Below, piece by piece: positions 42,449 to 62,104 of a stretch of 64,000 nt of DNA (position 1 is its first letter; each line of letters begins with the position of its first letter). The position numbers were made by a program, and so were the translations under genes. The stretch lies in NCBI GenBank assembly GCA_034226945.1, contig CP120463.1, positions 248,001-312,000 of the forward strand, read 5' to 3'. The DNA comes from Picochlorum sp. SENEW3. Lineage: Eukaryota. The notes under the pieces were generated by a model. It worked only from the letters and a program-made list of their open reading frames with translations, ran no database searches and was not told where the DNA came from.

Positions 42449-45280
42449 TTATGGTTCGTTAAGGAATGCCTCATAATCAAGAGGCTCCCAAGCAGCCAGC
42501 ATCATCTGCCTCAAGTCCTCAATCAGAGGGTATCGTGGGTTTGTTCCCGTGCACTGATCATCGAATGCGTCCTCGGCAAGCTTCACGAGAGCTTCTTCAT
42601 ACTCTTCAAATGACACTCTGTCGCCGATGGCATCCTTCATGCATGTAGGAATTCCAATGGAAGCCTTGATCTTCTCCACTTCTTTGACCAGGCACACCAC
42701 CTGCTCAATCTTTGAATTTGTTGCCTTGGCTCCTTGGCAGTCGAGGAGTGTTGCCAATTGAGCATAGTCATCGCGAGCATGCGATTCTTTGTACTGAGCA
42801 AAAGCCACAACCTTGTATGGGGCATCAGTGGCATTGTACAAAATCACATGGGAGATCATCAAGGCATTGGCCAGACCGTGGGCAATGTCAAACCTTGCAC
42901 CGAGCTTGTGAGCCATTGAGTGGCAAATACCCAAGAATGCATTTGCAAATGCCATACCAGCAATAGTAGCCGCATTATGGGTCTTTTCTCTTGCCTCTGG
43001 ATCCTCAGGGCCCAACTTGTAGGCACGTGGAAGGTACTGGAAGAGGAGGTGGAGGGCCTGGAGGGACAATCCCCTGGTGTAGTCTGTTGCATAGGCAGAG
43101 ACATAACTTTCCAATGCATGTGTGACAGCATCAATACCTCCGTTTGCTGTAAGGGATTTTGGCATATGCTTCACCAGCTGTGGATCGATAATGGCCATGT
43201 TTGGTGTGAGGGAATAGTCTGCAAGAGGATATTTAGAACCTGTTGCACCATCCGTCACCACACTGAATGGGGTCACCTCACTTCCAGTTCCAGATGTCGT
43301 TGGAATACAGATGAGAGGAGCTTTTGCACCCAAATCCGGGAAATCATACACTCTCTTTCTGATATCCATGAACCTCGTGGCCAGTCCCTCAAACTTTGTG
43401 TCTGGATACTCGTACAAGAGCCACATAATCTTGGCAGCATCCATAGGGGAACCTCCACCCAGCGCAATAATTGCATCTGCCTGATAGTCACTCAGCTCTT
43501 TGGCACCAGTCTGGATTGTTTCGATGTCTGGATCAGGCTTGACGTGGTAGAAGATCTGGGCATGCACATGGATGCTCTCCAAAACACTCACCACTTTGTC
43601 GACATATCCAAGGTCATAAAGAGGCTTGTCAGTAACAATAAATGCTCTCTTCTTTCCTTGAAGCTCTCGCAGGGCAACTTCCAAGCATCCTTCCTTAAAG
43701 TATACCTTTGGTGGCACCCTGAACCACAGCATATTTTCTCTGCGCTGTGCAACAGTCTTGAAATTGAGGAGATGCTTTGGCCCAACGTTGGTAGACACGG
43801 ATGTATTTCCGTACGATCCACATCCAAGAGTCAATGATGGGTCCAGGTTGTTGTACAAGTCTCCAATCGCTCCCTGAGATGATGGCATATTCACCAGCAT
43901 ACGGACAGTCTGAATGGTATTCTCCCATGCCTCAATATGCTCTCTGTTATTACTGTAAATAACAGACGTGTGCCCCTTGCCTCCATTTTCGACCAAATTG
44001 TTTGCAATCTCGAGTGCATCATCAAACGTCTTGGCACAAAAGAGTCCCAATATAGGGCACAATTTTTCAGAGGAGAGCACCTCATCGCTACCAACATGAT
44101 CAATTGGAGCAATCAAAAGGCGAGTATGATCCGTGATATCCCCATCCAATCCAAAAAGCTGAGCCAATTCATATGCACTCTTACCAACGGCATCTGCATT
44201 CATCCTTCCATCAGGGAAGAGTCCTTGTCTCACCTTTTCTGTGTCAGACTCTGACAGAATGTGTGCTCCTCTCCTCTCCATCTCAAACCTGAAAGCATCA
44301 TAGACATTCTCCAGCACCACGGCTGCCTGTTCGGATGCACAAATAACTCCATTATCAAACGTCTTTGACAAAAGAATATAATTCACTGCCATATGAATAT
44401 CAGCACAGCTGTCCACAATAGCTGGCGTGTTTCCAGCACCCACACCAATAGCTGGTGTTCCACTGGAATAGGACGAATGCACCATTGCTGGACCACCTGT
44501 CGCAATAATCATGCTCACTTTAGGAGACTTCATGAGCTGGAATGTCTCATCCTTGGAAGGATGCTCAATCCACCCGATAATTCCAGGAGGAGCCCCTGCC
44601 TTGACAGCAGCGTCATGCACAATCTTGGCAGCCGCAATGGTACAATCAGATGCCCTTGGATGAGGAGCAAGAACAATCGCATTCCTCGTCTTCAGTGCCA
44701 ACAAGCACTTGAAAATGGCCGTCGATGTTGGATTTGTTGTTGGAACAATACCACACAACACCCCCATTGGCTCTGCCACCTTTTGAATCCCATACACAGC
44801 ATCCTCCTCCACCACCCCAACAGTCTTCTCATCCTTGTACTTGTTATAAATCTCCTCCGACGCAAAATGATTCTTAATCACCTTATCCTCCACCAATCCA
44901 ATACCAGTCTCCTGCACCGCCATCTTTGCCAACGGAATCCTGCTCATATTTGCCTCCAACGCAGCATTCTTGAACACTGCATCCACCTGCTTCTGCGTAA
45001 AATGAGAATACGAGCGCTGAGCTGCCGCAGCCCTCGCAATCGCCATCTCCACTCTGTCTTCAAAAAGACTTGAATCCTCCCCAGCATCATCCCACGAACT
45101 CTTCTCCTGCGCACTCTCCTCCTCTCCCTTTCTATCCACATCAACCCCATTCACCCTCCATGAACCCCTTCTCCCCACACGGGGAGCAACATGTGCCGTC
45201 TGCGTCATCGCACCCGGAGAACACACCAATCTTCTCGTAGTCGTACTCTGCTTTGTTGTTCCAAGCACAGACAGTCTCAT
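42449..45280 (-). CDS. adhE: Bifunctional acetaldehyde-CoA/alcohol dehydrogenase (AdhE) with organellar transit peptide
   Basis: ALDH half: EDKVIKNHFASE, PTTNPTST, ATGGPAMV, FDNGVICASEQ. Linker PSLTLGCG. Fe-ADH half: GGGSPMDAAK, GICHSMAHK, HGLANA, DDQCTGTNPRYP. Likely start MRLSVLG. Confidence 0.97.
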   Translation of the reverse strand: MRLSVLGTTKQSTTTRRLVCSPGAMTQTAHVAPRVGRRGSWRVNGVDVDRKGEEESAQEKSSWDDAGEDSSLFEDRVEMAIARAAAAQRSYSHFTQKQVDAVFKNAALEANMSRIPLAKMAVQETGIGLVEDKVIKNHFASEEIYNKYKDEKTVGVVEEDAVYGIQKVAEPMGVLCGIVPTTNPTSTAIFKCLLALKTRNAIVLAPHPRASDCTIAAAKIVHDAAVKAGAPPGIIGWIEHPSKDETFQLMKSPKVSMIIATGGPAMVHSSYSSGTPAIGVGAGNTPAIVDSCADIHMAVNYILLSKTFDNGVICASEQAAVVLENVYDAFRFEMERRGAHILSESDTEKVRQGLFPDGRMNADAVGKSAYELAQLFGLDGDITDHTRLLIAPIDHVGSDEVLSSEKLCPILGLFCAKTFDDALEIANNLVENGGKGHTSVIYSNNREHIEAWENTIQTVRMLVNMPSSQGAIGDLYNNLDPSLTLGCGSYGNTSVSTNVGPKHLLNFKTVAQRRENMLWFRVPPKVYFKEGCLEVALRELQGKKRAFIVTDKPLYDLGYVDKVVSVLESIHVHAQIFYHVKPDPDIETIQTGAKELSDYQADAIIALGGGSPMDAAKIMWLLYEYPDTKFEGLATRFMDIRKRVYDFPDLGAKAPLICIPTTSGTGSEVTPFSVVTDGATGSKYPLADYSLTPNMAIIDPQLVKHMPKSLTANGGIDAVTHALESYVSAYATDYTRGLSLQALHLLFQYLPRAYKLGPEDPEAREKTHNAATIAGMAFANAFLGICHSMAHKLGARFDIAHGLANALMISHVILYNATDAPYKVVAFAQYKESHARDDYAQLATLLDCQGAKATNSKIEQVVCLVKEVEKIKASIGIPTCMKDAIGDRVSFEEYEEALVKLAEDAFDDQCTGTNPRYPLIEDLRQMMLAAWEPLDYEAFLNEP

Positions 45281-46100
45281 ATCCACAACACCCTGCATGC
45301 AATCACATGACAGATTGCCGTCAATCCCCCTCTCTCCACTCGATACCCATCCACACACCCAAACCCAAACACAAATACCATAAAACTATATATAGGTATA
45401 AAATCAACCACCAAAACCCGTCCATCAACACGTGCCCTAGTCGCGCATGCCCCCGCTGCCCTAGATCATCATCATCATCAACAACAACAACAACAGCAAC
45501 AGGCTGTTTGTTCAACAACCCCATCCACATACCTTGATGTGTATGACTCTGTATCGTATTAAGGAGTGAAATGAAATCCTCTCGGTTTTTTCACTCTGAA
45601 CAGATCAACGCGTGATCTCTCTCTCTCTGTGACTCGTATACTTCTGTGTAGAAGAAACACCTCTTCTATCTGTATATAGATACAGATACAACAAATATAC
45701 TTGTATAAATCGATATAACAGTAATTAATTATGCGAAAATGAGATGGGTTGTTGTACATCAAAAATGATTCCATGCAGCATATTCCATTCCATGCGAGAA
45801 GGCGCGGAGGCCACGTGTACTGTTTTGATGTGACAGGCAAAATCTCCTTGCTAGTAAAGTAGGAGATGGGCCCCTATCCCAGACCACTCTCGACCGTGCG
45901 CGGTTGATTGATCAAGACACAAAGAAAGGTTGAGAGGGTCCATTCGACCAAATCCTCTTTTTGTAATACCTCAGGTACTCATCTTTTTTATCAGCATAGG
46001 AATTTCTCTAATAAAAAGATAACAAATAGCAACTGAGCATTGCAGTACTACTCCATAGTGAGAGTGAAAAAGACAGCGACGGAAAATAAAGAGCGCGAAC

Positions 46101-46490
46101 ATGGCACTGCCTCGGAGTGAGACTTCTCGTTCTTCTGCAGATAAAGAGGAAGAAGAAGAAGAAAAAATAGAAGAGTCTTCGACTGGATTGGAACGGGCAA
46201 TGGCGCATGCGAAGGAATTTATAGAAGCGACTCCAGAGCAGCATAAAAAGTGACTGAAGAATACATGGAACAAGTTTCTCTCATCTGTGACGAACTCTTC
46301 TTCTTCCTCTTCTCAAAAGACTCCTTCTCACAAGACCACTCCTGGCGGTGGTGTAAGTACTAGTACTAATAGTGGGGCGAGCACGGCTGTAGGGGGTACA
46401 GAGGAGAGAGGAGCCAAGGTTGCCGTGTACAGAGTGAAGGCTGTTGTGGGGTGCACAGGCGACGACGATGATGATACGCGAGAGAAATAA
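46101..46490 (+). CDS. Small hypothetical protein with an in-frame TGA at 46251-46253 (candidate selenoprotein or readthrough; 50 aa if TGA is the stop, 129 aa if recoded)
   Basis: ATG at 46101 reads ...EFIEATPEQHKK-TGA-LKNTWNKFLSS..., and the same frame stays open to TAA at 46488-46490. Confidence 0.6.
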
Positions 46491-46615
46491 TAATACATAC
46501 TATACACGAGAGGAGTATACCAATTTAAAGTAATTTCCAAAATAACGATCAGAAGAAGAGATGAAAGAGAGAGAGAAGCATGTGTTCCTTGCTTAGCTAA
46601 GCAATGCTCATGTGC

Positions 46616-46662
46616 GAGTCTGAATATGATGGACTGGTTCAAGTCCTGACGAGGTCAGATTC
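46616..46662 (+). promoter_or_regulatory. SECIS-core-like / kink-turn RNA hairpin
   Basis: GAGTCTGA/TCAGATTC 8-bp lower stem, A-TGAT/TGAC quartet, GGACT/AGTCC upper stem, 6-nt loop. Confidence 0.45.
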
Positions 46663-46697
46663 AAGTATAATACCAATAGTATCATGTAATAATAATA

Positions 46698-49600
46698 ATG
46701 AATATAGAAGACGAAGAGGGACGAGGGCGTGTTGGTTTGGGAGAGGTTTTGGAAGAAGAAGAAGAAGAAGAAGAAGGTTGTTCGCGACTGTGGGAGGGGA
46801 ATGCTTCTTCTTCTTCTTCTGAAAAGAACACTGGTGTTCTTTTTGAAAAAATACAGTCGTATAGGTATAATAATGAAGAAGAAGCTTCTGGGGGTGGTGG
46901 TTTGAATGACGTGGATGTTGCTGATGCTGCCTTGTGTTTTTGTTTGGGGTTGAATGAGGATCGTGGGCTGGTGGATTCGCTTGGTATCATTTCAGATGTA
47001 TTTGAAGATCGGATGAAGGATGTTTTGGGTGGTCTTGTATCAGAGAGGCCTTCCTCTTTGGACAATGTTGACTTGGTAGACGACTGTGAATTGATTCTCG
47101 AGAAGGGATCCGTCGATGTGATTTCGACTGGACCTGGAATGTACTCTGTGGTGGGAACGAGTAACTTTTCTTCTGTGCGAGGTGGCATTGATGTGCCTTG
47201 TGAGGGGCGTTGGATGTTTGAGGTGCAGTTGAATACACCTGGGATTATGCAGTTGGGTTGGGTGACGCCTCTGACGGTGTATACATCCGAGGATGGGGTC
47301 GGTGATAGTCGAGATAGTTATGCGTATGATGGCAAGAGGGTGCGGAAGTGGAATGTGGAGTCCATGTCGTATGGGGAGAAGTGGACTGCTGGGGATGTGA
47401 TATCATGTGGGATTGATCTTGAGAATGGGAGGATAGAGTACTGGAGGAATGGGGTGCCAATGGGTGTGGCGTATACGCCGAAAGTGTTGAATGATATATC
47501 GTATTCTCCTGGAGTATCGGTGAGTTATGCTGAGGCGTGTGAGATTAATTTTGGGCATGTGCCTTTCCGGTACCCAGTGGATGGATTCTTGCCGCTTTTG
47601 CCAGAGGTGGAGCTTGCGTCGACGGCTTTATCCTGTGCTGCGTATTTGACGGATTGTTTGGAAAAGTTGACGGTTCTTGGGCAGATGAGGGGGGCAATGT
47701 CTCCAGGAGAGGCAGCTGCTGTGGCTGCATCTCATGCAGCAGAGATGTTGGGGTTGGAAGCATGCACAGCTCGGATGAAGGATGCATATAGGGTGAACAG
47801 CAGGAATACTCTTTTGAGTACTATTCGGGATCAGGCAGCGAGATTTTTAATGAAGGAGTTGGCATGGGTGATGCGTAGTCATTTTGTGGTTGATGCTGTG
47901 TTTCTAGAGTCATTCCAGCGGATGCTCTTCTATGATCAGCGTGGCAGTCCTATGAAGACGTTCTTAGAATTACTTGCTGATAATCTTGATGATAGATCGT
48001 GCAAAGATTTTGTGCATGCTGTGTGTGCGAGTTGTGGGCGAAGGGTGAAAGGAAATGTGTGGGAGAGAAGCATGGTTGTTGGACGTTGTGATGCCGTGGT
48101 TTATACGCGGATTTGGTTGCATTTCATGACAAATCGTAGATTTGTGTATTCATGGCTTGATGGGAAGGATTGGATGGAAGAGTTTGAAGATTTCTTTGCT
48201 GTGAGACAGCCAACAAATGAGGACTTGGCTCAACTTGTTCCAGCCTCTGCGGAGGATGATGTTGAATGCATGTTGGACAAAATGATTGGGTTTGGACAGT
48301 CTGATTCTCATGAGGATATGAGTGATGCTGTCACGGATGTAGTTACGTTGTTAAAGTATGTTGAGGATTGGCAAGGTCAGTTGCTTGGTACATTGTTAGA
48401 GTTGAAAAAGATTGAGGAGGGAGGAGATGAGAAGGCACTTGTAGTGAATGAAATTGAAGAGGTATTGGATGATGCTACCGTGCAAGATTATCTCGATAGA
48501 TTTGCTGAAGACCAGGCTACTACGATATCTAGGGATGGGTGGCTGGACATGGTGAAAGCTGTCATGGTGTTTGATGGACACGTGGAATCAACCATGGTTC
48601 CACCGTATTTTGCGCAGTTTATCAAGTATATCACGCGCAAAAATCTGGGGGTGAATAGAGAAATGGCGCCCCCTGGGCTCTCAAATCCTACTGTTGTGTG
48701 TTCGTTGCATTCATTTGTTGTACGGGCTTGCAGAAAGTTCTTGAGAAAGGTACATTTGGAAGGCTCTTCATTTGAATTTCCACCTCAGGTGTTTTTACGT
48801 GGAATCCGATCTACTGTCGTGGGAGTTTTGGATGATTTCGATGACGATAGCCTGGATCCAGATGCTCGTTTGGGTGGTGGACTGTCCTATCTGTGTAAAC
48901 AGTCCATTGTGGATGTATGCAGTCAGACTTGCAGGCCGCTTCATGTTCCTGCTTTAGACGAGGATGTTAGAGCTCGTGACTGGTTACTTGGACCAATGTC
49001 TCGGCCTATGGCAGTTTTTGAGGAGGGTGCGTTGTGGAAAGATTGAATGACGACTATTTTATCGGTAAACTTGAAGCATCAATTGTTTATGCAGCACCTG
49101 AATGGTCTTGGTGGCTTGTAAATGCCTCCTTTGTGCTGTTTCATCTCGGAGCCAGTCAAATGACAAAGCTAATTTATACGTACATGCAAACATTTGAAGC
49201 GGCAATGACCTCATACAAGGGAATGCTGGAAAAGTATAATGCCGAATCAGAGGGGGCCGGGGCAGAAATTATTGAATTCACAATGAAAGAATGCAAAAAA
49301 ACAATGATTGAAAGCCTCAGATTGCTCATGTGGTATATGAATTGGCTCATGCCAAAATGGAAGCAGGAGACATTTGGTGCATTGGCAGCAGTCATGGCTA
49401 GGATAGTTCTCCACATTCAACAAGATAACAGAGGCCCTCTACTGTCCTACGTTGCAGATTTGTATGTGGAGGGAGCCCTTGATATGGTGCGTACTCATTG
49501 ATTATTATTCGTATATACTCAAAAAAAAGCTGGATGCTCATGTGCTTGTGTTCTTTGTAGGTCTTGGCCTGTAGGAGATCGGATCAGGTGTCCTGGAAGT

Positions 49601-50934
49601 CATTAGAAGATCAGAATTCCTTTTATTTGGAGCAAATCGTCCAGTTATGCATCGGTCTAATTCGAGATACAAGGGTTGTCGATCCAAGAGCGCAAAATTC
49701 GATTTTGTATTCGTTGTGGATGATGATTCGGGATGAAGATACGTGTTCCTTTCTGTGCCAAAGCTCCTATGCAAGACAGGCCCTGCTGCCTAGTTTGATA
49801 GAATCTTTCGACCACCCACGAAATTGGATTCATGCTTCCAATGCGTTTGGCCTTTTAGTTTCTTCTAGTGGACTCTCTCCTCGCATAGGAACCGGTGAAG
49901 AATCAGCAGGAGTAAGGGGGTATAGAGAGGAGATGAGGGCATGGCTTGCTGCTATTCTCCAGCAGGACAAGAAACTCAGGAATACATTGTTCACCTCACT
50001 TATTGATAGGCTAAATTGGATCTCTCCAGAGGTGATACTAATTGTGGAAGAATTGCATCAGCAGCTCAGGGATTCTGGAGGCATTGAGGATCAAGCTCTC
50101 AGTTATAGACGGGTATTAGCAGCATGTGACTTGTGTTATCATCTCGTCAGGTTGTTGGAGATTGCCTGTACGTTTGATCCGGAAGCCATATTGAGTGCAG
50201 AACCTGACGCCGAGTTGCTGAGCGCTCGTTTGGCAGAGCTCATTGGGTGGGGGCTGCAAAATTTTTGTGAGCAGTCTCATCTCAACAAGCTCCTATCCAA
50301 GATCCACCAGCAGCATGAGCAGGGCTTGTTGCGACTTGGCAGGGATGTCAGAACAACCATGGTTATAGAGGTTTTGGGCCCATATCTGGGCATACTCTCT
50401 TCCCTAGAACAATATGCATCTCGAGCAAAGTCTGGAGTACCAGCTCTCTATTCTCGAGGAAAAATGCCTGATGAATCTGTCGTGGATGGCTGGCATGCGT
50501 TCATCCTCTGTTTGAAGGAGAACTCGGTATCAGGGGATTTAATCAAGGATTGCCTCCGTTTGGTAGAAACCCCGACGCAATCTGGCCTGCAAACACCATC
50601 TGAAGCAGACATCAATAGCATTCACAATGTCATCAAGGCATTTGACTGCATTGAATCCCCTGAAGGAAGTGCGCTAGGAGATGAGCGAAGAACATCTATA
50701 ACAGTCCCCGAAGAGTTCTTAGACCCCATTCTGAACGTTCTAATGAAGGATCCCGTCATCCTTCCGGATTCAAAAGTCACATTGGACAGGAAAACCATTC
50801 AACGACATCTCACCATCAGTGCAACAGATCCATTCAGTCGCTGCCACCTGTCAGAAGAAGATTTGATACCAAATCAAGCTCTGAAGAAAAAACTGGAAGA
50901 ATGGATGAAACTTCATGTCGATGCCTGCGAGTAA
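46698..50934 (+). CDS. SPRY-domain E3 ubiquitin ligase (RKP/RNF123-like) ending in a U-box; introns 49027-49094 and 49487-49560
   Basis: SPRY: FSSVRG..GRWMFEVQL.TPGIMQLGW..GVGDSRDSYAYDGKRVRKWN..NFG..PFRYPVDGF. RKP-like 'PPGLSNPTVVCS'. U-box: VPEEFLDPIL..LMKDPVILP..LDRKTIQRHL..DPFSR..LIPN. Confidence 0.88.
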
Positions 50935-61777: not shown

Positions 61778-62104
61778 TTACAAAATGCGTTGCAGTTTTC
61801 TTTCTTTTTTTTTTCCTCATAATTATCATTCATTCTAGTGTCATCCATCTATCTGCATATGATGTACATGTAATGATGATGGTACACTCTTGAAAAAAAA
61901 ATACACACATTGATCAAAGATTTGAAACTAGGAATCAAGCCATGGTCTCAGCGATCTTGGTGGAAAAAATTCGTCATGGCAGTATTGCTCAAGAGTAGCA
62001 AATATATAACATAAGATTACATCACCGACCACAGCACCAGATATGCCTCAGAGAGAAGATTATGTATGATCAGTAGGGTGATGCTGGAAACCAGCAGCAC
62101 ACCT

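Follow-up and report, generated by a model that had tools for sequence, protein, structure and literature searches.

A two-tier hairpin downstream of a conserved in-frame UGA as a candidate miniature SECIS in Picochlorum

Eukaryotic selenoproteins have been found almost wholly through searches for canonical selenocysteine insertion sequence (SECIS) elements. Archaeal SECIS elements are hairpins of ~40-50 nt in the 3' untranslated region (UTR) that combine an internal loop with a short helix at the apex, and there are also conserved UGA readthrough genes that have no SECIS, such as the hymenopteran SPS1-UGA, in which a hairpin stands right after the UGA. We describe here a 64,000-nt stretch of the genome of Picochlorum sp. 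SENEW3 (assembly GCA_034226945.1, contig CP120463.1, positions 248,001 to 312,000 of the forward strand; hereafter the window), in which a 47-nt hairpin lies downstream of a small gene with an in-frame UGA, and we tentatively propose that this hairpin is a miniature SECIS through which the UGA would be recoded as selenocysteine (Sec).

In eukaryotes the SECIS is found in the 3' UTR at a distance from the in-frame UGA that exceeds about 51-111 nt, and its core consensus is UGAN/KGAW (PMC3753652). The SECISearch rule reads NTGA, 10-13 nt, an unpaired AA or CC, 15-39 nt and GA, with energy cut-offs of -12.6 kcal/mol overall and -3.7 kcal/mol for the upper part (PMC2375036). Rules for binding of SBP2, drawn from systematic evolution of ligands by exponential enrichment (SELEX), mutagenesis and footprinting, comprise a G.A/A.G/U.U triplet with a purine-pyrimidine pair above it, at least two Watson-Crick pairs, and a loop with A in position 2 and U in position 3; replacing a 3-nt bulge by an internal loop raises binding of SBP2 and lowers that of Snu13p (PMC1874613). 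For Picochlorum, tRNA-Sec and 5-11 selenoproteins have been reported (PMC11092101), and for Trebouxiophyceae 0-5 selenoproteins (PMC7539508).

The hairpin and its core

The features on which the argument turns are as follows, in positions of the window.

46616 to 46662, + strand: two-tier hairpin of 47 nt, its bases read directly and its fold taken from RNAfold
46578 to 46615, + strand: second hairpin, abutting the first on its 5' side and topped by a perfect 16-nt palindrome
46608 to 46687, + strand: unit flanked by the direct repeat TCATGT (46608-13 and 46682-87), containing the two-tier hairpin
46101 to 46490, + strand: gene for a small protein, 129 codons long; codon 51 is an in-frame TGA, and the stop is TAA at 46488-46490

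Helix I of the two-tier hairpin joins GAGTCTGA (46616-23) to TCAGATTC (46655-62) by seven Watson-Crick pairs and one G-U pair. Above it opens an internal loop with AUAU (46624-27) on the 5' side and CGAGG (46650-54) on the 3' side, followed by GA (46628-29) facing GA (46648-49) as a tandem G.A/A.G, a geometry read from sequence only, and by U46630 facing U46647. Helix II then pairs GGACU (46631-35) with AGUCC (46642-46) (G-C, G-C, A-U, C-G, U-A) beneath the apical loop GGUUCA (46636-41). All bases and pairings given in a preliminary description of this locus are present, including the short upper helix (helix II is 5 bp), the missing apical AAR (the only AA, 46641-42, is half paired) and the perfect 16-bp palindrome just upstream, TTGCTTAGCTAAGCAA (46589-46604), which caps the hairpin at 46578-46615. 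RNAfold recovers the two-tier fold from the 47 nt at -16.7 kcal/mol (z-score, z, -2.89), a value equalled by 1 of 200 shuffles, and keeps it in contexts of 91, 181 and 613 nt, while the opposite (-) strand folds at chance level (z -0.84).

The top of the hairpin, 46636-46646 (+), also forms an 11-nt word resembling a tRNA T-arm/T-loop, its sole occurrence on either strand of the window; it fits the T-arm/T-loop consensus GGTTCRANYCC. Several other identities were tried for the hairpin and set aside: a tRNA or tRNA-derived element (ARAGORN gave 0 tRNA genes in the window), a hammerhead or other ribozyme core (rejected by eye, with no match in Rfam), a known RNA family (nothing meaningful on the hairpin in Rfam at E≤10), and a repeat or mobile element (no second copy of the hairpin in the window).

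Set against the rules for known SECIS elements, the hairpin begins at a distance of 365 nt from the UGA and of 125 nt from the stop of the small open reading frame (ORF), a position that fits SECIS spacing provided that it lies, as we presume, in the 3' UTR. A SECIS core has tandem sheared G.A/A.G and a 5' (A/G)UGA; here AUGA (46626-29) faces GA (46648-49) and adjoins helix II, and all of the SBP2 determinants are present in the sequence (the triplet; G-C, then G-C; A2 and U3; the internal loop). Both the total energy of -16.7 kcal/mol and the -6.1 kcal/mol of the upper hairpin pass the cut-offs, and the quartet-to-AA spacing of 11 nt is within the SECISearch rule. An alternative register with GA 46658-59 has fitting spacings and was rejected on energy (+1.5 kcal/mol overall, -3.3 kcal/mol for the upper part).

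No canonical SECIS was found downstream of the UGA. A SECISearch-like scan of 46257-47400 (+) by pattern plus energy gave 0 candidates; window-wide it passed 33 UGA sites, so it was not blind, and it was run with no known SECIS as a positive control. No Rfam SECIS family reached its gathering score anywhere in the window, and none matched at E≤10 in 45300-46800, 46480-46720 or 46700-47900. The preliminary description had offered a shortened SECIS as one reading of the hairpin and a relaxed model search as a check; such a search over the hairpin (241 nt) returned no Rfam SECIS match at E≤10. That reading holds for the upstream gene, the position and the SBP2-type core, and does not hold for helix II with its AAR, for Rfam, for the AA-to-GA distance or for the 3' half of the core. 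Membership of the canonical class fails; what survives, partly supported and strengthened by the conserved UGA gene upstream, is the hypothesis that the hairpin works like a SECIS.

Across the whole window a hairpin of this shape and stability is ordinary, and no excess over chance needs to be invoked. Folding energies of -16.7 kcal/mol or lower were found in 371 of 42,636 sampled 47-nt segments, at 116 loci. A pattern with helix I of at least 8 bp, UGAN/NGAN and helix II of at least 5 bp occurs 4 times against 1.02 per shuffle, and at least once in 129 of 200 shuffles; with AUGA required, it occurs twice against 0.29 per shuffle (at least once in 50 of 200). A relaxed version of the pattern gave 17 occurrences against 8.35 per shuffle, a number reached in 0 of 100 shuffles. 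For the ~205 nt downstream of the UGA-containing ORF, on one strand, the strict pattern is expected at about 0.0005-0.002 sites and a looser SBP2-type pattern at 0.0056 sites (3.5 per shuffled window over 500 shuffles, with 8 matches at 7 distinct sites in the real window). We take the chance probability of an SBP2-type core in this 205-nt stretch as less than about 1-2%.

Three read sets from close relatives retain the hairpin, and the sole listed change, A46652G in the 3' loop, is common to all three. In the relative X17, which is ~4% diverged in the flanking genes, 46608-46682 differs at 3 of 75 nt, compared with 87-91% identity in other alignable intergenic pieces. There, after 46608-46682, come 2 extra letters and a second copy of 46608-46637, a tandem duplication of the hairpin unit, and the centre of the palindrome is altered by small indels, with a shorter perfect palindrome apparently remaining. 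A 132-nt X17 contig over 46553-46637 has a depth of 643, the next contig 82 and the flanking genes ~65. This read set may be RNA, as its short contigs (longest 6476) suggest, or DNA, as the equal flank depth of ~65 suggests; nothing from it aligned over 45957-46478, and no contig joins the hairpin to the coding region of the E3 ligase gene that follows, neither of which was used as evidence. A degenerate hairpin pattern matched metagenome contigs at 5 loci, all in unrelated GC-rich sequence without the flanks.

The small gene and its in-frame UGA

The in-frame TGA (46251-46253) is followed by CTG and stands inside the conserved core of the small protein, AHAKEFIEATPEQHKK-[TGA]-LKNTWNKF. When the read-through translation was compared by phmmer with 1.84 billion representative sequences, four of the 6 matches proved to be true relatives, and a profile of these four retrieved 36 proteins, some of which are one locus with differing 5' extensions, so that the independent lineages number fewer than 36. 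P0055 and P0059 were dropped as relatives, their match looking compositional (low-complexity). Termination exactly at the position of the window's TGA, after ...AHAKEF[ILMY]EA[ST]PE[EQD]H[KV][KQ], is seen in 29 of the 36. Another five carry Trp (W) at this position, followed by LK[NS]TF[NS]K, and the remaining two carry Cys, followed by LRNTFNK. One of the Cys forms, 88 residues long, is annotated as a protein in an Auxenochlorella hybrid, and a cluster mate of the other shows a retained in-frame intron after ...NTFNK and then a conserved second exon. The W forms are probably TGA codons read under code 4, since P0061 and its cluster mate P0098 are the same DNA in different frames and P0098 forces two W codons of P0061 to be YGA; the protein collection does include proteins called with TGA=W (code 4).

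The 77 residues past the TGA align with what follows W and C in P0056 and P0057 (BLASTP E 0.001 and 8e-4). The TGA-containing ORF of the preliminary description is a real conserved gene, with relatives and with in-frame conservation beyond the TGA, and a second, independent set of DNA reads contains the TGA as well (X9; contig over 46206-46422, 0 differences). As is looked for in selenoprotein genes, the TGA is aligned with Cys in homologues and both flanks are conserved. A stop held at one codon throughout the family, where the one sense residue that is certain is Cys, is the usual signature of Sec. This pattern and the in-frame conservation past the TGA together imply that the UGA at 46251-53 must be passed by ribosomes. 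Conserved readthrough by a near-cognate tRNA is the main alternative to Sec at codon 51.

AlphaFold predicts the small protein to be a helical hairpin with helices at 27-42 and 45-65, the second of them continuous through residue 51, at a predicted local distance difference test score of 83-88 over residues 31-60. Two His and three or four Glu are invariant in the family, and the recoded position is three residues past the second invariant His. Pfam gave nothing above noise on the small proteins, a word-based search with the single small ORF gave no match, and the family alignment found nothing in genome contigs and viral contigs; the motif strings of the small protein did not turn up in a search of ~8.4 million papers, in which sequences printed only in figures would escape.

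Some further observations were made on this gene. An oligo-dT RNA library (X19) gave two read-length contigs over 46088-46376, which count among the evidence for the gene; that it covers only this part was not itself used as evidence. Many family members start with MGC or MSC, or carry one Cys in the first 15 residues; this Cys might be acylated or might act as a resolving Cys for the Sec/Cys at position 51, and it is missing from the small protein of the window. ESM Atlas neighbours of P0056 are plant clusters without names, with scores ≤0.90, and are leads only. A perfect 16-nt inverted repeat (46144-59/46296-311, +) flanks the UGA at ~100 and 45 nt and pairs in the 613-nt fold; one arm is GAA-rich and codes for poly-Glu, the other is TCT/TTC-rich and codes for poly-Ser, and such low complexity may be chance. 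A 49-nt intron from GTAAGT at 46353 to AG at 46401 was judged unlikely, as it would shift the frame and remove a conserved C-terminal segment.

Readings of the hairpin and of the UGA

Either the small gene has no SECIS, or the hairpin is its non-canonical SECIS. We favour the latter, as a tentative explanation with somewhat less than an even chance of being right: the hairpin would be a miniature SECIS and the recoding element for the UGA at 46251-53, which is conserved family-wide. It would act as a K-turn-type (kink-turn) stem-loop for a protein of the SBP2 class, placed in the 3' UTR, or in an inter-ORF spacer, of the previously unrecognised small gene 46101-46490. Such a mini-SECIS would retain helix I, the large internal loop, the AUGA/GA core, the U.U and the G-C on top, with a 5-bp helix II and a 6-nt loop replacing the usual 10-13-nt arm and its unpaired AAR. 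The UGA would then encode Sec, the hairpin would be part of the mRNA of the small gene, SBP2 would bind it, and it would suffice for Sec insertion. The family pattern and an improbable SBP2-type core at the place of a SECIS raise the standing of the Sec reading, and the absence of a canonical SECIS lowers it. The fuller proposal, that a trebouxiophyte-type alga inserts Sec by means of a 47-nt mini-SECIS (an SBP2-type K-turn with a 5-bp helix II and a T-loop-like cap) for a family, not yet catalogued, of small His/Sec helical-hairpin proteins, is possible and on balance doubtful.

Several points weigh against the mini-SECIS. Helix II has only 5 bp below its GGUUCA loop and lacks an unpaired AAR; AA 46641-42 is 5 nt from the 3' GA, against the 15-39 nt of the rule, and one of its A residues is paired; and in the core, UGAU/UGAC, U fits the K of the consensus while C takes the place of W. 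The relatives compared are too close to show covariation. The X17 depth of 643 could mean an abundant RNA stopping inside the hairpin; a paralogous copy is another possible cause, and so is an effect of assembly. For the 29 truncated relatives the stop is seen at the protein level and TGA is assumed, and a TGA origin of W, probable for all five W forms, was shown for one of them. The patterns used for the chance expectations were composed after the hairpin had been seen, so that the true expectations are somewhat higher than those given above. Picochlorum selenoproteins were found with SECIS-based tools, and the machinery would need to accept two very different elements. Every natural SECIS has a long helix II according to PMC1874613; known SECIS elements were, however, nearly all found by tools that require a long helix, and this counts less heavily against a short helix than it might seem to.

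Near-cognate readthrough at the UGA, or mostly termination to give a 50-residue peptide, with an incidental hairpin or a generic 3'-UTR structure that resembles a K-turn by coincidence, is a possible reading which we consider rather unlikely. The stop stands in the context AAG-UGA-C, and a C next to UGA makes for the leakiest stop; readthrough at UGA inserts Trp, Cys or Arg, so that W and C would match if the five W forms were true TGG. It also accords with the failure to find a canonical SECIS, with the 116 equally stable loci in the window and with the generic pattern occurring in most shuffles. Yet one W form or more arose as an artefact of translation under code 4, and when 29 (or 34) of 36 relatives keep a stop at one codon and the sole certain substitute is Cys, this is the classic Sec pattern. 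The 87 nt after the UGA contain no stimulatory structure (z +0.53), and the expectation of an SBP2-type core in this 205-nt stretch is ≤0.006.

The next reading depends on the surroundings of the hairpin. The window belongs to a compact eukaryotic genome (GC ~45%, genes 100-300 nt apart), and the hairpin and the small gene sit in an unusually long gap of ~1.3 kb between an AdhE gene and an E3 ligase gene. AdhE, the use of TGTAA and an only named relative that comes from Auxenochlorella would fit a trebouxiophyte-type green alga, and salt-lake metagenome runs, X9 among them, contain part of the window (shares 0.33-0.40).

42449 to 45358, - strand: bifunctional AdhE gene
46685 to 46689, + strand: first TGTAA (chlorophyte-type poly(A) signal) past the small ORF
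46698 to 50934, + strand: gene for an RKP/KPC1 (RNF123)-like E3 ligase; Pfam domains SPRY and RNF123-type TPR, and a U-box at the C-terminus

UGUAA is known as a poly(A) signal in chlorophytes (PMC1868727, PMC4025486). In the window TGTAA behaves as such a signal: it falls 10-51 nt past the stop in 7 of 20 long ORFs, over a background of 0.8 per kb per strand, and 3' UTRs here are therefore very short. The first TGTAA beyond the small ORF comes ~195 nt after its stop, overlapping a one-codon ORF, ATG-TAA (46684-46689), and 23 nt after the end of the hairpin; its position suggests for the small ORF a 3' UTR of unusual length, which would include the hairpin. From the end of the hairpin to the ATG of the E3 gene there are 35 nt, and the start of the E3 protein, M-N-I-E-E, is retained in relatives of 96, 94 and 86% identity. 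Two pairs of proteins suggest that the adjacency of small ORF and E3 gene is conserved and the locus possibly dicistronic: P0096 (a small-ORF relative) and P0002 (a close E3 relative) are each on a 6067-nt contig, and P0085 (a small-ORF relative) and P0011 (E3, 46% identical) each on a 6142-nt contig. Conserved colinear pairs of a small and a large ORF on one mRNA are described as widespread in green algae (PMC7896298).

The C-terminus of the E3 protein is a U-box, whereas named plant and animal RKP/KPC1/RNF123 relatives have a RING finger; its closest algal relatives (P0005-P0009) also carry the U-box. A search of metagenome contigs with the E3 protein found no relative.

At such a place the hairpin might serve expression of the E3 gene, as part of a 5' leader or core promoter or as a dicistronic spacer whose stem of about -17 kcal/mol would damp or gate E3 translation. 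This is unlikely, although the start codon 35 nt beyond the hairpin is conserved in relatives, the two contig pairs come from two other organisms, and dicistronic small-ORF/large-ORF mRNAs are, as noted, reported from green algae (PMC7896298). Between the stop of the small ORF and the E3 ATG (46491-46697) there are seven ATGs, two of them inside the hairpin, so that a long E3 leader over this region is awkward; TGTAA intervenes between the hairpin and the E3 ATG; and the SBP2-type core would be left unexplained. A spacer function for the E3 gene and the mini-SECIS are compatible if the mRNA is dicistronic.

That Sec is inserted through another, unrecognised element, the hairpin being irrelevant, seems improbable. 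The Sec/Cys-type pattern of the family would suit it, green algae are reported to have lineage-specific SECIS features (PMC2375036, PMC3753652), and the UGA is surrounded by the perfect 16-nt inverted repeat. Against this, the Rfam searches and the pattern-plus-energy scan downstream were empty, only ~205 nt are available before the next gene, and the inverted repeat is GAA/TTC low complexity.

The weakest reading, already raised in the preliminary description, is a box C/D-type K-turn for proteins of the Snu13/L7Ae family, that is, a small RNA or a binding site unrelated to recoding: AUGAUGG has 6 of the 7 letters of the C-box consensus and CUGA all 4 of the D-box consensus, the best, and only, Rfam match on the hairpin at E≤10 is SNORD57 (14.3 bits, E 3), and the high-depth X17 contig covers 46553-46637. 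We regard it as very improbable, because the SNORD57 score is far under the gathering score of 47, the 47-nt element has no guide region or C'/D' boxes, its 4 x 5 loop puts 5 nt between the GA of the D box and helix I, which weakens binding of Snu13p (PMC1874613), and the window holds no other copy. Elsewhere in the window, a box C/D small nucleolar RNA gene at 61944-62030 (-) matches SNORD24 with 48.3 bits (E 2.6e-05), where the gathering score is 41; no other Rfam family passed its threshold in the window.

If an element of half the usual size does work, the long helix II and the AAR would not be universal requirements and the selenoproteomes of compact genomes would be undercounted; should the mini-SECIS be true, SECIS-based pipelines would systematically overlook such elements and their genes. 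The small gene matters even if the hairpin is not the signal, being a widely conserved algal mini-protein whose stop is kept at one position. Given its conserved stop, its lack of a recognisable SECIS and the Cys of one lineage, it represents a new family of selenoproteins or else a gene with UGA readthrough that is deeply conserved in green algae, and is a worthwhile lead whichever way the question of the hairpin falls.

Comparison with known systems

The small gene resembles the SPS1-UGA type in its conserved in-frame UGA, its conserved extension and its lack of a canonical SECIS; it differs in having no hairpin right after the UGA and in that Cys is its only sense homologue. With the archaeal SECIS the hairpin shares size, two-tier form and a candidate 3'-UTR site, whereas the loop motif and the binding factor there are others and the present host is a eukaryote. 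With the K-turns of box C/D RNAs and of the U4 5' stem-loop (Snu13/15.5K/L7Ae) it shares the G.A, A.G, U.U and G-C built from UGAUG and CUGA; those have a 3-nt bulge with helix I next to the GA, in contrast to the 4 x 5 loop of the hairpin, which has no guides.

The nearest likenesses are to elements that bind SBP2. Unlike a eukaryotic type I SECIS, the hairpin has just 5 bp in helix II where a 10-13-nt arm is usual, lacks an unpaired AAR or CC, has an AA-to-GA distance of 5 nt and UGAC in the core, and matches no Rfam SECIS model; like one, it stands downstream of an in-frame UGA in a conserved ORF and combines helix I, a large internal loop, the 5' AUGA, the G.A/A.G, the U.U and two G-C pairs in succession. 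The minimal SBP2 ligands obtained by SELEX (Se1-type K-turn RNAs; Clery et al. 2007) are in vitro binders for which Sec insertion is not demonstrated in the account given in PMC1874613. With these ligands the hairpin shares the short helix II, the G.A/A.G/U.U, the purine-pyrimidine top and two or more Watson-Crick pairs, and an internal loop added to them raises their affinity for SBP2 (PMC1874613).

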